This document shows, in pieces, positions 2,896-45,865 of a stretch of 64,000 nt of DNA; position 1 is the stretch's first letter; every line of letters begins with the position of its first letter. The stretch covers positions 7,226 to 71,225 of the forward strand of contig CAZJNH010000004.1 in assembly GCA_964547425.1 (NCBI GenBank). The letters run 5' to 3'. Under the pieces are notes generated by a model, which worked only from the letters and a program-made list of their open reading frames with translations, did no database searches and was not told where the DNA came from. The stretch comes from an uncultured Candidatus Saccharibacteria bacterium. Lineage in GTDB: Bacteria; Patescibacteriota; Saccharimonadia; UBA4664; CAZJNH01. The position numbers and the translations under genes are program-made.

Positions 2896-3405
2896 TTGCT
2901 TGAGCTGTTGATCGTTATCGTAATCATTGGAATTCTTGCAATTATCATTGTTCCCGGCCTCGCCAGCGGCCCAAAGCGCGCTCGCGACGCAAATCGTAAA
3001 TCTGACTTGCGCGGCCTCAAGAACTCCCTCGAAACTTTTTACAACGACAACAGCTCCTACCCGGTACAAACCACCACCGCCAGCACCACGTCCCTTACCG
3101 CCACCGCTTTACTCAGCTCTACTACTGGTGTTGTACCAAATTATCTGCCGGCTTTCGAGTGCGACCCGAGATCAAGCGTGAAAACCACCACCACCACCTC
3201 CACTCTTTGTGTCGACACGGTTGACGGCTCCAATACCCTGCGTTACCTCTATAAATCGGGTTCTTCAGGTTCTTCTTACCGCGTCTGCGCGACGCTTGAG
3301 AACGCTCAAGACGGAGACGATGGCAACACAACTACAAACGTGTCCGAGGGGTACTCCGTGGTCAGTGTGAACGGTACCGCTCCCGGCACCCTCTGCACTA
3401 CTTAG
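2896..3405 (+). CDS. pilA: type IV pilin paralog 2 (start codon anomalous)
   Basis: The product (…HAHG)FTLLELLIVIVIIGILAIIIVPGLASGPKRARDANRK… is collinear with paralog 1. An AGGAGG Shine-Dalgarno sits at 2845-2850. There is no in-frame ATG or GTG before the G|F cleavage site. The only in-frame candidates are CTG at 2860 or ATC at 2872, or the TTG at 2896 which would delete the leader. Confidence 0.7.
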   Translation: MLELLIVIVIIGILAIIIVPGLASGPKRARDANRKSDLRGLKNSLETFYNDNSSYPVQTTTASTTSLTATALLSSTTGVVPNYLPAFECDPRSSVKTTTTTSTLCVDTVDGSNTLRYLYKSGSSGSSYRVCATLENAQDGDDGNTTTNVSEGYSVVSVNGTAPGTLCTT

Positions 3406-4398
3406 ATGGCAAGATTGGGACGAATTTTCAAACACCTCCGCGACCAACGCGGTTTTACTTTTATTGAGGTCATAACCACATCTGTAATCATCGGCATCGG
3501 CTTTACGGCCATCTTTGAAACCTTTATTGCCGCCAACAACCTGAACCGCCAATCAGCTCAGTATCTGGCCGCGTCCAAGTTCGCCCAAACCGAGCTCGAC
3601 TACTACCGCAGCCAGCTGTTCACTACCGACGTCACAGCTACTAGCGAAACCGACAGCACAAGTTTACTTAGTGGCAGTACCGACGTTTCCGGCTCAATGC
3701 CCAGCTTACCTGGGGGCACCGCAATTAGCTGCTCCTCGGCGGCATCAGGCACCTTAGGCAAATACGCTTGCGTAACTGTCGCGGCTGTCGAGACTGGGAT
3801 GTACCGTGTCACAGTGTTTGTAGGTTACCGCGAAGGCGGGACGGCCGAAAGAACGGTGCAGTTGAGCACGTACGTCGCCCAAAACGGCGTCGGCACCAAT
3901 CCCACCGTCTGGAATTATTACTTTGATCATTCCGATGCAGGACCAGCGAGAAGTATATTCACCCAGCCATCAACCTGGACCAATTCCTCAAACGCGGTTG
4001 ACGGAAGCATAGCGACCGCCTCAACGAATTCAAGTGGTCCCAGCTCCTGTTCGGTGTCTCAGAACGGTTTCACCGAGAACGGATGTATGTTTATTTATGG
4101 AACTAATTCGCCGCCACAGGGCGGAACGGGTATTACAACGGTCAAGGCACGGATATACGGCTCTAACTCTACCGCATACATCTATCAAGGTTGTACGAGT
4201 GGAACTTCCTGTTGGGGGACGGCTTTGGCAACCCTAACAATGCCCAGCGGTAGTGCTACTTTTGGTAGCTGGGTTACATTATCTGCGCCCAGTGGGGGTT
4301 GGACTTGGCCGATTTTGAAACACCTCGTCTTGGGAGTAAACGGTTGCTCTACGGTTCCTTGCTCGATCTCAGAAGTTCAACTCCGGGTGTTCCAGTGA
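3406..4398 (+). CDS. minor pilin / pseudopilin (prepilin N-terminal domain), 330 aa
   Basis: The N-terminus is MARLGRIFKHLRDQRG|FTFIEVITTSVIIGIGF. The body is Ser/Thr-rich with a C-terminal Cys pair. Confidence 0.7.
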   Translation: MARLGRIFKHLRDQRGFTFIEVITTSVIIGIGFTAIFETFIAANNLNRQSAQYLAASKFAQTELDYYRSQLFTTDVTATSETDSTSLLSGSTDVSGSMPSLPGGTAISCSSAASGTLGKYACVTVAAVETGMYRVTVFVGYREGGTAERTVQLSTYVAQNGVGTNPTVWNYYFDHSDAGPARSIFTQPSTWTNSSNAVDGSIATASTNSSGPSSCSVSQNGFTENGCMFIYGTNSPPQGGTGITTVKARIYGSNSTAYIYQGCTSGTSCWGTALATLTMPSGSATFGSWVTLSAPSGGWTWPILKHLVLGVNGCSTVPCSISEVQLRVFQ

Positions 4399-33226: not shown

Positions 33227-33301
33227 TGGTGGCTGTGGGTGGATTTGAACCACCGACCAACGGCTTATGAGTCCGCTGCTCTACCACTGAGCTACACAGC
33301 C
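33227..33301 (-). tRNA. tRNA-Met(CAU), elongator type
   Basis: GGCTGTGTAGCTCAGTGGTAGAGCAGCGGACTCATAAGCCGTTGGTCGGTGGTTCAAATCCACCCACAGCCACCA. It has U4-A69 as in tRNA-Met, with one A31·G39 mismatch in the anticodon stem. Confidence 0.75.
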
Positions 33302-33467
33302 GCACTGGCGGTCGGGTTGGATGGTGGCTCCGCCACCTCCCTGCGGTGCTCGGTAAGAACTAATCAATCTTACTTCTTACCTGCGCTCCTCGTCCACCGA
33401 ACCTGCGGTTCTTCATCCAACCAATCACTAAACAAGGCCCACATCCGGATTAACCGGCTGCGGGCCT

Positions 33468-33542
33468 TGGTAGCGGGGGTTGGATTCGAACCAACGACCT
33501 CCGGGTTATGAGCCCGACGAGCTGCCACTGCTCTACCCCGCG
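33468..33542 (-). tRNA. initiator tRNA-fMet(CAU)
   Basis: CGCGGGGTAGAGCAGTGGCAGCTCGTCGGGCTCATAACCCGGAGGTCGTTGGTTCGAATCCAACCCCCGCTACCA. It shows an unpaired 1:72 (C·U), A11:U24, and three G-C pairs closing the anticodon stem. It is near-identical to E. coli tRNA-fMet. Confidence 0.85.
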
Positions 33543-33587
33543 GCACAACATAGCAATATAGCACTTTATATCTGGAGGGTCAACGCG

Positions 33588-33968
33588 TCAGCCAAAGAGG
33601 AAGTGCCACCACTGTACCCAGTTAGCCGTTTTGGAGGTTTTTGTTTTAGCGGCCTCGGCTGGCGTTTGAGTGGCGGAGATTTTATCCCTCGGCAATATAA
33701 CTAGGGTTTCGCCGGGTTTTTGCAAGCCCAGTTTAGCCCTGGCAGCCTTTTCTTTATAGGCGTCGGTTTTGTAATACTCAATCTGATAGCCCAGCTCGGC
33801 GTTGTCTTCCTTTAGCTGGGAGACATCTCTTTGTAATTGCCCAATCTGCCCCTGAAGACTGGCGTTGTTGCGCACGGTCTGGACTAAAATGATTGCTAAG
33901 TAGATCGAAGATATTACTCCAGCTAAGCTAACAAACTTGTTGACCACGCTCTGATTTGGTTTCACCAC
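33588..33968 (-). CDS. septum formation initiator family protein (FtsB/DivIC-like)
   Basis: A single TM helix followed by a coiled coil (LQGQIGQLQRDVSQLKEDNAELGYQIEYYK). Confidence 0.6.
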   Translation of the reverse strand: MVKPNQSVVNKFVSLAGVISSIYLAIILVQTVRNNASLQGQIGQLQRDVSQLKEDNAELGYQIEYYKTDAYKEKAARAKLGLQKPGETLVILPRDKISATQTPAEAAKTKTSKTANWVQWWHFLFG

Positions 33969-34037
33969 TTAATTCTAACTTAAAACCATAAGCTTCTATA
34001 TTAAAGAAGTTGTTTGCTAAACTTAAGCCACCGCTGT

Positions 34038-34113
34038 GGGCCGGTAGCTCAGCGGTTAGAGCAGCGGGCTCATAACCTGTTGGTCGTAGGTTCGAATCCT
34101 ACCCGGCCCACCA
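34038..34113 (+). tRNA. tRNA-Ile2 (CAU to lysidine), or second tRNA-Met
   Basis: GGGCCGGTAGCTCAGCGGTTAGAGCAGCGGGCTCATAACCTGTTGGTCGTAGGTTCGAATCCTACCCGGCCCACCA. The C4-G69 and C5-G68 acceptor pairs are those preferred by TilS. Confidence 0.7.
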
Positions 34114-43632: not shown

Positions 43633-44994
43633 TCAGAACGACTCTGCAGGACCCTCGGGGTTTGAATACCAAAGATTTTCTCCTTTTGATTTTTGAGACA
43701 AAATTTTCCCAGCCTTCCTCAGTCTAAATAAGGTGTCTTTAACCATCCTGCCAGTCAATCTGAGTCCAGCTGGGGCTTCAACCGATTGCATAATCTCGTT
43801 GAACGATCGGGGCGAGCCTCCCAGTAACCCAAGTACCATAATATTTTGATCTTCTTGGGGGAAACGGTTGGCTTCGGGGGAAGCCACAGCAGCTTTGGCT
43901 ACTAGCTGCCTGACCATTTCGGGGTTGCTGATAATATCATGGGCAAGGGCTTTACCTTCAGCAAGGAAAGTCTCTTTTCGAGTCGAAAAGTTTTCCAGGA
44001 TGTTAAGTGCCTCTTGCAGGGTCTCCCTTGACTCTGGTTCAATACTGATATCTGATAACTCCTGCAGATTGTACGTAGGAATGGCTAATCCTTGGTCGCG
44101 AAATCCAGTTAGGATGTAGTTCACATTGCTCCGCAAGCTTTTTTGTTCACTGTACGTTGAGTTCTGTTCAATTACATCATTGACAATAGACTCGGTGGTT
44201 AGCTCAACTCCCTCCTGCTTTGCAAGCAAACTGTTAATACTATCCGCAACGGCTTTCGAAAGTCCTGGCTGCTCAAAGCGAGGTTCGTATTCGGTAATTG
44301 TTTCAGGAAATTCATAACTGGGTTTCAGTCCCTTTGCAGAGGTCGCATCTATTTGGATTAAGCCTACCTGCTCAAGTTGCTGTAGTTGATTTCTGACCGT
44401 ATTACGCGATCCCTGCTCAACCGAGCTATAAAGAGATGCCAGATTTATGGGTAATTCATTTGTTAGCAGCTCCCTTAGGATCTCGATACGGCGATCGGGG
44501 GATCTTTTGTCCGCAGTTTTCGAATGAGTAAGCCCAAAAACTTCTTTGAGACTTTCTTTATGCTCTGAGGAAAATTTAAGTAGGTGCCCAGCCAGCGGCA
44601 CACCAAGCTCCATACCTTTTTCAGTTACGGTGTATCTAGCTCCTTGACCTGTAATCTCCTCTTTCGCTACTAGACCTATGGGGGCAAACGAGTCCTTACA
44701 ATAATCGAACCCCAGGCTTATATTTCCTTTCCACACCAAGTCTTCACCTTGAGTGTTGCGAAAAGCTCGAGCTAGGTCGCTACGGCCAAAGTCCTTTCGA
44801 GGGTGTTCAGCCATGGCCAGGAAAATAATGGCCTTTGCCTCATGATTCCCAACGGCGGATACAAGCTGTCCAAGTTCCTGGTCACTAACACGCTCGGGTG
44901 TAGTTTCGATCTCTTCTTTTTCTAAGAGTTCAGCCGCGAGTTCGCGGTGGCTAAACTTGCTTTGCTCACCAGATTCGGATTCTTGTTCATTCAT
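43633..44994 (-). CDS. hypothetical protein with repeated winged-helix-like segments (low GC)
   Basis: Lower-GC codon usage. Several segments resemble the ends of HTH/winged-helix domains (…QLQQLEQVGLIQID). The start was set at MNEQ (44994) so that the upstream repeat lies outside the gene. Confidence 0.4.
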   Translation of the reverse strand: MNEQESESGEQSKFSHRELAAELLEKEEIETTPERVSDQELGQLVSAVGNHEAKAIIFLAMAEHPRKDFGRSDLARAFRNTQGEDLVWKGNISLGFDYCKDSFAPIGLVAKEEITGQGARYTVTEKGMELGVPLAGHLLKFSSEHKESLKEVFGLTHSKTADKRSPDRRIEILRELLTNELPINLASLYSSVEQGSRNTVRNQLQQLEQVGLIQIDATSAKGLKPSYEFPETITEYEPRFEQPGLSKAVADSINSLLAKQEGVELTTESIVNDVIEQNSTYSEQKSLRSNVNYILTGFRDQGLAIPTYNLQELSDISIEPESRETLQEALNILENFSTRKETFLAEGKALAHDIISNPEMVRQLVAKAAVASPEANRFPQEDQNIMVLGLLGGSPRSFNEIMQSVEAPAGLRLTGRMVKDTLFRLRKAGKILSQKSKGENLWYSNPEGPAESF

Positions 44995-45047
44995 TGTCCA
45001 TATGATAGCAAAAAACGACCTGCCAGGTCGTTTAAGCATAGGGGCTA

Positions 45048-45065: not shown

Positions 45066-45180
45066 AGCGGCTTCGCCTTCTCCGCTTCGCTACGACGAAC
45101 TCCCTGCTTCGCAGCCGAGTTCTCATCTCGGCCTGAAATCAAAAAGGTGTGGCAATGACGCGAGGTCATTTCCACACCTT

Positions 45181-45484
45181 TGGCTCCGGGGGCGAGATTC
45201 GAACTCGCGACCAATTGATTACACCGATCCCACTGTTTCCAATGAGGGTGGACTATATCATCATCCGCCGGTGGGCGGAGCGGGGCGCTTCCTCTTACGA
45301 GTACTCTCTTGCGAGATAGTCTCTGAACCTTACCCTCGCCTTTAAGAAAAAGACGAGGGGCTTGGCTGCTGATTACCTTATTCTAGGAACTTAGGTTTCC
45401 AGCAATTCACCCCGTTTTTCAAACCCGATTACTCGGGCAAGCTGCCTTTTGACAGTCAACTGCTCTACCGCTGAGCTACCCCGG
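45181..45484 (-). tRNA. tRNA-Asn(GUU) interrupted by a group I intron after nt 36
   Basis: Joining exons 45451-45484 and 45181-45221 gives TCCGGGGTAGCTCAGCGGTAGAGCAGTTGACTGT|TAATCAATTGGTCGCGAGTTCGAATCTCGCCCCCGGAGCCA. This has U1-A72, G73 and the loop CUGUUAA, as in E. coli tRNA-Asn. A rho-independent terminator lies at 45140-45180 on the minus strand. Confidence 0.75.
45222..45450 (-). ncRNA. group I self-splicing intron (229 nt)
   Basis: The 5' exon ends in U and the intron ends in G. P1 pairs the exon CUGU with intron GCAG. The P (AAUUGCUGGAAAC), Q (AAUCAGCAGCC), R (GUUCAGAGACUA) and S (GAUAUAGUCC) elements are all present, and GACUA pairs with UAGUC to form P7. Confidence 0.75.
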
Positions 45485-45514
45485 AACGCCGAGTTATTTT
45501 ATCTTTTTTACGGC

Positions 45515-45826
45515 TTACGGTAAAGAATTGCTTACTCCAGCCTCAACTTCACGATGGCAGTTCGCGCAGAGAAGGATGCACTTATCAAGCTCCTTGAGTA
45601 TCTTTTCCCAGGATCGGGTATAACCTTTGGCGCCAATCCCAAAGTTTTTCTCCTTCGGATATAGATGATGTATTTCCAAGGCACCTTGATAATAGCCATA
45701 CCCGCAAGCCAGACATTTACCCCCCAACTCAGCGACAGCCATAGCTTTTATTTTCTTACGACGTTTACTGACGGCTTGAACCATATACTTGCGGCGGTCA
45801 GCGTAAGTTCGAGTCTCTTTTCTCAC
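45515..45826 (-). CDS. HNH endonuclease (free-standing, possible homing endonuclease)
   Basis: CLACG…LEIHHLYPKE…N…LLCANCH is a canonical HNH zinc-finger nuclease motif. AT-rich. It ends 30 nt upstream of the tRNA-Asn 5' end on the same strand. Confidence 0.7.
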   Translation of the reverse strand: MRKETRTYADRRKYMVQAVSKRRKKIKAMAVAELGGKCLACGYGYYQGALEIHHLYPKEKNFGIGAKGYTRSWEKILKELDKCILLCANCHREVEAGVSNSLP

Positions 45827-45865
45827 ATACTAATTATATCGAGCAAACGAACGAAAAGCGAACGA

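Follow-up and report, generated by a model that had tools for sequence, protein, structure and literature searches.

A predicted HNH nuclease gene beside an intron-split tRNA-Asn gene of a Saccharibacteria genome, and the tRNA-Asn-linked family to which it belongs

Why would a gene for a small HNH endonuclease stand just outside a group I intron, when such enzymes are usually encoded within the introns that they mobilise? The question is raised by a 64,000-nucleotide (nt) stretch of an uncultured Candidatus Saccharibacteria bacterium (assembly GCA_964547425.1, contig CAZJNH010000004.1), hereafter the window, in which an open reading frame (ORF) of 103 amino acids (aa) lies at 45515..45826 on the minus strand, next to a tRNA-Asn(GUU) gene that is itself split by a group I intron without an ORF. 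A first-pass annotation, made from the sequence of the window alone, had proposed either an unusual trans-acting homing arrangement or a remnant of the element that delivered the intron. We consider it rather probable that the ORF belongs to a homing-endonuclease family specific to tRNA-Asn, and that in the window it stands free, next to a copy of its usual intron that has no ORF, in the layout known as collaborative (trans) homing.

The ORF begins with GTG, ends with TAA and specifies a Cys4 zinc site together with an HH...N...H catalytic motif. Residues C38-x-x-C41, H53-H54, N61/N89 and C87-A-N-C90-H91 can be read directly from the sequence, which bears out the earlier claim of a complete HNH motif in a 103-aa protein. 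All 31 invariant columns of the family alignment (A1) are kept in the window protein. The four cysteines of the zinc site (C38, C41, C87 and C90) are invariant in that alignment, as are H53, H54 and H91 among 27 homologues, in which N89 is at least 90% conserved. The Pfam HNH profile PF01844 gave 18.9 bits against a cut-off of 21.4 bits, and five PHROG families annotated as 'HNH endonuclease' matched with E-values from 1.9e-28 (phrog_2255) to 8e-07. An AlphaFold model built with 27 homologues (predicted local distance difference test score, 82.6) places a long N-terminal helix ahead of a beta-beta-alpha core, with strands at 50-54 and 83-87 and a helix at 88-95. Its top Foldseek matches in the Protein Data Bank (PDB) are all HNH domains (Cas9 HNH, the small Gme HNH nickase 4h9d and Cap5), with probabilities of 0.9-0.98, yet with E-values of only about 0.04. 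PDB searches by sequence and by structure returned generic HNH matches only, and a search of NCBIfam returned nothing useful. We judge it likely, on balance, that the ORF encodes a small HNH (beta-beta-alpha-metal, zinc-bound) DNA endonuclease of a homing-endonuclease family associated with tRNA-Asn(GUU). The AT-richness previously ascribed to the ORF is weak: its GC content is 46.2%, against 51.9% for the whole window, and 9% of 312-nt windows are equally low or lower. An origin as the En domain of a group II intron was rejected. The best PDB hit of that kind (6me0) aligns only over C-terminal residues 473-548 (E=6e-4), 103 aa is too short for a reverse transcriptase and Pfam gave only sub-threshold HNH-type matches.

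The split tRNA-Asn gene occupies 45181..45485 on the minus strand and is separated from the HNH stop codon by a spacer of 29 nt; adjacency and shared strand thus stand as first described, while the spacer length, given as 30 nt, needs correcting. Its 5' exon (45452..45485, minus) ends in CUGU, with U at position -1, between anticodon nucleotides 35 and 36. The intron of 230 nt follows (45222..45451, minus), with U-1/omega-G boundaries, a P1 loop of 4 nt and an internal guide, GCAGC, at 45441-45445. The 3' exon (45181..45221, minus) starts with UAA and supplies the T arm, the acceptor strand, a discriminator G and an encoded CCA. The exact splice sites were set by the U-1/omega-G rule, giving the junctions CUGU/C...GGUG/UAA, and the joined exons form a canonical tRNA-Asn(GTT) of 75 nt. 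The guide GCAG pairs with exon CUGU, a U-G wobble included. The Rfam model Intron_gpI (RF00028) matched at 45229..45468 on the minus strand with 100.5 bits, over model positions 1-253 of 253. By this match the intron is a complete ribozyme, and self-splicing is predicted. Since its P1 loop has only 4 nt, there is no space for an ORF and no ORF trace. ARAGORN with default settings did not detect this tRNA-Asn; in intron mode it placed the outer ends correctly, misplaced the splice sites and labelled the window gene tRNA-Asp. The intron-mode labels tRNA-Asp and tRNA-Thr were rejected as products of misplaced splice sites. Splitting of the gene by the intron accounts for the failure of tRNA finders to report tRNA-Asn in these genomes.

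Is this neighbourhood peculiar to the window? The family is very large: an exhaustive search of 1.84 billion cluster representatives yielded 24,770 matches at E<=1e-3 and 6,100 at E<=1e-10. Homologues at 60-73% identity to the window protein numbered 1,237, mostly of about 104 aa, with named sources in the candidate phyla radiation (CPR, Patescibacteria). No entry identical to the window protein turned up in exact-sequence look-ups. We surveyed the genomic context of 80 loci out of at least 554 confirmed relatives in species-representative genomes, mostly CPR/Patescibacteria. In 79 of these 80 loci, no more than about 100 nt separate the ORF from a tRNA-Asn 5' exon. Complete exons could be recovered in 72 of 81 loci, the window counted. 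Every one of the 69 intron-bearing complete loci is split at CTGT/TAA with U-1 and omega-G; the remaining three have no intron. In a sample of 20 loci, the group I intron passed the Rfam gathering threshold in 15.

Four arrangements were distinguished. In class A (66 loci), the order is 5' exon, a leader of about 35 nt, the HNH ORF, the ribozyme core and the 3' exon, with introns of 498-624 nt. Class B, comprising the window and nine other loci (L008, L034, L040, L042, L045, L047, L058, L059 and L077), has the HNH gene just upstream of a tRNA gene whose ORF-less intron spans 174-236 nt. The HNH gene lies 9-17 nt upstream of an intron-less tRNA-Asn in class C (L013, L023 and L029), and just downstream of a tRNA with an ORF-less intron in class E (L006 and L014). 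The comparison with nuclease families that the first-pass annotation had suggested therefore sides with intron-encoded nucleases, 66 of the 80 genomic homologues being resident in the same tRNA-Asn intron.

In class A, the ORF fills the P1 loop of the same intron type, at the same insertion site as in the window. The guide GCAGC lies 300-340 nt into the intron, within the last conserved HNH codons (AGI-TQL-P, encoded by ACG CAG CTT CC), and the ORF tails extend into P2 and P3. The first intron base and the base preceding the guide form G-C in 41 class A loci and A-T in 12, with five mismatches, and C-G, A-T or G-C pairs occur in class B. This covariation across the whole ORF supports a P1 helix that would close around the ORF in class A.

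Relatives in phages hold the same position without the intron. IMG/VR contains at least 557 of them, at 44-64% identity and located in phage tRNA arrays, of which 80 loci were surveyed. The immediate neighbour is an intron-less tRNA with anticodon GTT in 59 of the 80 (upstream in 33 and downstream in 32, sometimes both), although GTT tRNAs make up only 72 of the 515 tRNAs (14%) in those loci. Bacillus phage Bastille has its HNH gene (gp259, 52% identity) between two tRNA-Asn genes, and in Aeromonas phage LAh_6 an unannotated tRNA-Asn lies 15 nt before the HNH gene gp060 (64% identity). A more distant homologue in Felix O1 abuts tRNA-Ile. Because the phage relatives so often flank an intron-less tRNA-Asn directly, the genomic address of this nuclease family is the tRNA-Asn gene, not the intron, and the intron is a facultative partner. 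The phage tRNAs adjoining the nuclease gene vary widely in sequence. Some phages have the nuclease gene flanked by two GTT tRNAs. Several GTT tRNAs beside phage HNH genes have long variable arms and lengths of 82-91 nt, unusual for tRNA-Asn (L085:1780-1870, L090:1221-1306, L095:1084-1170, L098:1195-1281, L100:1992-2073, L109:1775-1860 and L137:1101-1189). A group I intron was found in one phage locus only, L082. In this 22-kb contig from a viral collection, the HNH gene sits inside a tRNA-Asn group I intron (1440-2059; Rfam, 70 bits), in the CPR-type layout; it is either a CPR fragment classed as viral or a phage or prophage with a composite intron.

The family thus spans many CPR lineages, phages and one contig with archaeal hallmark genes. 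The latter, L073, is binned as Woesearchaeota and carries the same HNH-containing group I intron (2951-3534; Rfam, 97.2 bits) in a tRNA-Asn whose acceptor stem has the archaeal-type G1-C72 pair. Archaeal hallmark genes lie just upstream (aIF2-beta, aIF1A, a PNO1-type KH protein and DUF424), so mis-binning does not explain this locus, and a transfer of the element between CPR bacteria and DPANN archaea seems to have taken place. A similar locus in a Nanoarchaeota bin (L014:982-1680) is on a contig too short to check.

How stable is the position of the nuclease gene? Purifying selection acts on the HNH core throughout the family: the median ratio of nonsynonymous to synonymous substitution rates (dN/dS) is 0.10 over 68 unsaturated pairs. 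The nearest HNH (70%) and the nearest intron core (76%) to those of the window both come from class A loci. The same holds for L008, L042, L058 and L006, with the window forming a set whose nearest class A relatives share 70-86% identity in HNH and 66-77% in the intron core. As these class B and class E loci have class A loci as nearest relatives for both parts, sequence relatedness makes it evident that the nuclease gene changed between the inside and the outside position several times, independently. The sequence around the window ORF shows no trace of an earlier 5' exon or guide.

These observations fit a homing cycle of the following kind. The predicted nuclease would recognise the DNA of an uninterrupted tRNA-Asn gene, probably near the anticodon loop, where the intron always inserts, and would nick or cut alleles that lack the element. 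Recombinational repair from a window-type allele would then copy the intron into the break, and the nuclease gene, at a distance of only about 63 nt, would be copied along with it. By splitting the presumed recognition site, the resident intron would make its own genome immune; an element of this design could still be mobile today.

Collaborative homing pairs of this type are known. Free-standing F-CphI is paired with an ORF-less psbA intron in cyanophage S-PM2, and phage T4 mobE with an nrdB intron whose own I-TevIII is defunct (PMC3984707; PMC2790892; PMC6083498). Like the window, both have a free-standing nuclease gene beside a gene with a group I intron that carries no ORF or a defunct one, and for both it has been proposed that the two parts are mobilised jointly and that the intron eventually captures the nuclease gene. 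The first-pass suggestion of a trans-acting arrangement is to this extent matched in layout (PMC3984707), with the qualifications that the intron is not an obligatory partner and that homing in the window is predicted. Both pairs involve protein-coding phage genes and were shown by experiment, whereas the window concerns a chromosomal tRNA gene of a CPR-like bacterium and is known from sequence. F-CphI, moreover, has an Endo VII-type motif and does not belong to the HNH subfamily of the window protein. Unlike those pairs, the window family is also found inside the intron (66 loci) and beside intron-less targets, so that several stages coexist.

Other homing enzymes resemble the window system in part. 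I-Ssp6803I, reportedly described by Bonocora and Shub in 2001, is said to be encoded in the group I intron of the Synechocystis tRNA-fMet gene. It is likewise a bacterial homing endonuclease targeting the anticodon region of an intron-split tRNA gene, but it is encoded inside the intron, in another tRNA and at another insertion position. It is also a PD-(D/E)xK enzyme, not an HNH one. Enzymes of the I-HmuI type and I-PfoP3I (PMC3428280) are HNH-family homing enzymes associated with group I introns, the small ones often nicking one strand; they differ from the window protein in residing in phage DNA polymerase genes, in being larger and in having extra DNA-binding modules. No close sequence relationship between these enzymes and the window protein was detected. 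Among phage tRNA genes, the free-standing T4 SegB drives preferential inheritance of the tRNA region (PMC2330249), and T5 has annotated heg genes in a comparable place; SegB, however, is a GIY-YIG enzyme. None of the genes of the T5 tRNA region matches the window protein at E below 0.01, and T5.069, which abuts the T5 tRNA-Asn, was rejected as a characterised relative since it is not homologous. Bastille gp259 and LAh_6 gp060, annotated as 'HNH endonuclease', are true homologues directly beside tRNA-Asn; they differ from the window in that this tRNA is intron-less, that they reside in phage tRNA arrays and not in a cellular chromosome, and that the proteins are often longer.

The intron itself belongs to familiar ground. 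Williams (2020) catalogued the tRNA intron class 'Asn.4Ug', which agrees with the window intron in the tRNA, in insertion after the fourth nucleotide of the anticodon loop, in U-1 and in omega-G, and of which one member, Pam37.Asn.4Ug, is present in the seed alignment of that study. It notes that introns above about 400 bp 'may contain' genes; it treats introns only and does not describe the HNH family or its alternative positions. Lui et al. (2021) mentioned that some CPR tRNAs have group I introns. Neither the HNH family nor its tRNA-Asn linkage nor its alternative positions were described in anything that our literature searches found.

Is the nuclease gene expressed together with the tRNA, as had been supposed? 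A -10-like hexamer, TATAAT, lies at 45833..45838 on the minus strand, 6 nt before the GTG codon, and is a putative promoter of a leaderless or nearly leaderless HNH cassette. A -10 box occurs 6-10 nt before the start codon in 51 of the 66 intron-resident copies, compared with a background of 6%; these boxes are mostly perfect TATAAT, frequently with TG in front. Given that the box recurs before the start codon inside and outside the intron, the nuclease gene looks like a self-contained cassette of candidate promoter and leaderless ORF wherever it is located. A second promoter-like site, TTTACC-17-TAAAAT (45496..45524, minus), may serve the tRNA. Its -35 box (45519-45524) falls within the final HNH codons (S-L-P); the -10 box (45496-45501) belongs to the spacer and precedes the tRNA 5' end by 10 nt. 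The sequence TTTACA-17-TA(A/C)AAT occupies the corresponding place in L034, L040, L045 and L047. No terminator-like site was found between the ORF and the tRNA. A terminator-like hairpin followed by a T run, which matches the consensus and is the probable end of the transcription unit, lies about 150 nt downstream of the tRNA (45013..45033, minus). Co-transcription of ORF and tRNA is thus possible on this arrangement, but it would not be required, because the promoter-like site overlapping the 3' end of the ORF would start transcription just before the tRNA. The earlier supposition that the two are co-transcribed does not hold as a necessity. The same layout is repeated in four further loci.

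Several points weigh against a homing role for the window pair. In the three class C genomes and in most of the phages, the tRNA-Asn next to the nuclease gene is uninterrupted. Should the anticodon loop be the target, such genomes must tolerate or evade self-cleavage, through a nicking-only enzyme, resistant variants or low expression, and the persistence of the gene beside an intact tRNA-Asn weakens the step in which the intron confers immunity. Expression of the window nuclease may also be low, as its GTG start has no Shine-Dalgarno sequence before it and leaderless mRNAs of model bacteria are initiated poorly from GTG. On whether the gene moved inwards or outwards, a midpoint-rooted neighbour-joining tree gave no clean answer, and the distance to the phage forms is equal for all classes (53-55%). 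Lastly, four class B loci (L034, L040, L045 and L047, with L059 and L077 close by) form one Saccharibacteria group with this layout in common. The four share flanking genes, including an upstream LexA-like gene that is also upstream in the window and by itself suggests a Saccharibacteria-like origin for the latter. As the HNH genes of the group are nearest to each other, the introns are likewise, and the flanking genes are conserved, this looks like long vertical inheritance rather than active homing.

This last observation leads to the strongest alternative, which we regard as unlikely though worth weighing: that the gene derives from a homing endonuclease, is inherited vertically at tRNA-Asn and no longer homes, being kept by its overlap with the tRNA promoter or by an acquired host role. 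The LexA-like gene upstream of the HNH/tRNA-Asn pair in the syntenic group and in the window, and the clustering of both HNH and intron within that group, agree with it. So does the position of the tRNA -35 box within the last HNH codons, where deletion of the ORF would harm tRNA expression. Promoter overlap alone, however, would not maintain all catalytic and zinc residues or the strong purifying selection seen across the family. The nearest HNH and intron relatives of the window are, moreover, intron-resident copies of other lineages and not members of the syntenic group, which points to horizontal movement.

The second possibility raised in the first-pass annotation, a decaying remnant of whatever element brought the intron in, we consider improbable. 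The window intron lacks the ORF that its relatives carry inside, so the ORF may have been displaced during or after arrival of the intron. There are decayed copies at other loci: the intron-resident ORF of L036 is reduced to 51 aa (2977-3132), and L055 (3001-3511) is a degenerate copy in which an intact HNH gene is followed by a truncated piece of intron and no tRNA. The window ORF fits poorly with such decay: it is full length, free of frameshifts and in possession of every invariant residue, in a family with low dN/dS, and it keeps the promoter-like leader of the family.

A guarding role, in which the nuclease attacks incoming DNA with an uninterrupted tRNA-Asn, such as phage tRNA arrays, while the intron shields the host gene, seems distinctly improbable. 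Were it true, the intron would be the immunity element of a defence system, a device for telling self from non-self. Phage tRNA arrays very often hold tRNA-Asn and rival copies of the same nuclease family, the host copy is intact and stably placed, and the host tRNA-Asn is interrupted exactly within the anticodon loop. The idea is nevertheless purely inferential; the tRNA-Asn beside the nuclease is unshielded in three genomes, and none of the neighbours examined was recognised as a defence-type gene, although the PADLOC library of defence-system models was not searched.

The two remaining readings were rejected. Some intron-encoded nucleases double as maturases (PMC3984707), and the gene adjoins an intron, but a role as splicing cofactor has very little to recommend it, given that homologues are common beside intron-less tRNA-Asn, that the 103-aa protein has no RNA-binding domain and that the intron matches the full ribozyme model. 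There is next to no chance of a generic McrA-like restriction or housekeeping HNH protein beside the tRNA by accident: several homologues are labelled 'McrA' by JGI and there is a weak match to Escherichia coli McrA (6ghc, E=0.039), but it is limited to the 16-residue HNH motif (residues 79-94), the modified-cytosine-binding N-terminal domain of McrA is absent (103 aa against 287 aa in the solved McrA chain), no restriction-system partner genes lie nearby, and adjacency to tRNA-Asn, seen at 79 of the 80 loci in genomes and at 59 of the 80 in phages, all but excludes chance. The first-pass annotation had named such relatives, or wide occurrence beside intron-less tRNA-Asn genes, as what would speak against its proposal; the gene does lie beside intron-less tRNA-Asn in 3 of the 80 genomic loci and in those 59 phage loci, yet the family is neither a housekeeping nor a restriction one.

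What might the family tell us if collaborative homing is indeed the right reading of the window? According to one proposal, mobile group I introns originate by fusion, after an ORF-less intron and a free-standing homing endonuclease have come to use one site; two phage systems are cited for it (PMC3984707). Here, one very large nuclease family displays every proposed stage at a single target, the tRNA-Asn gene: beside the intron-less target (phages and some CPR), beside the intron-containing target (the window) and inside the P1 loop (most CPR). As the family extends from CPR bacteria to phages and to at least one contig of DPANN archaea, the hypothesis on the origin of mobile introns becomes testable by phylogenetics and simple enzyme assays. 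Tentatively, and with rather less confidence than we have in the homing reading, we suggest that the family may record how a nuclease gene moved repeatedly between places beside and inside a ribozyme, so that a mobile intron was assembled and taken apart again in bacteria, archaea and phages. We hold this to be more likely than the guarding role discussed above.

Some further observations concern the surroundings of these loci. L040 (3770-6268) and L059 (3700-6201) share a segment of about 2.5 kb that starts about 100 nt after tRNA-Asn and encodes proteins with 93-98% identity, one of them a protein of 670 aa whose N-terminus is rich in His. The two loci have only 68% identity between their HNH genes and unrelated sequence upstream; this resembles an island, or a boundary of recombination, on the 3' flank of tRNA-Asn. 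Contigs end no further than about 700 nt from the HNH/tRNA-Asn element in 31 of the 80 genomic loci. Assembly therefore seems prone to break at the element, for which repeats or polymorphism between strains may be the reason. The sole other contig found with the glycosyltransferase of the window (L081, a Logan contig of 1.7 kb) stops about 50 nt past that gene, just before HNH, and the HNH gene of L055 lies downstream of a homologue of the same glycosyltransferase (35% identity). L023 has an AdoCbl-II (cobalamin) riboswitch match (4092-4169, 37.8 bits) about 700 nt downstream of its intron-less tRNA-Asn.

Downstream of the split tRNA in the window is an ORF of 497 aa whose listed start is at 45126. 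As the terminator-like hairpin at 45013-45033 would fall within its first 40 codons, the true start is probably the methionine near 44994 (MNEQ...). The protein gave only weak helix-turn-helix matches. Elsewhere in the window, three tRNA-Met(CAT) genes lie within 900 nt (33227-34113), a tandem pair on the minus strand and a single gene on the plus strand.

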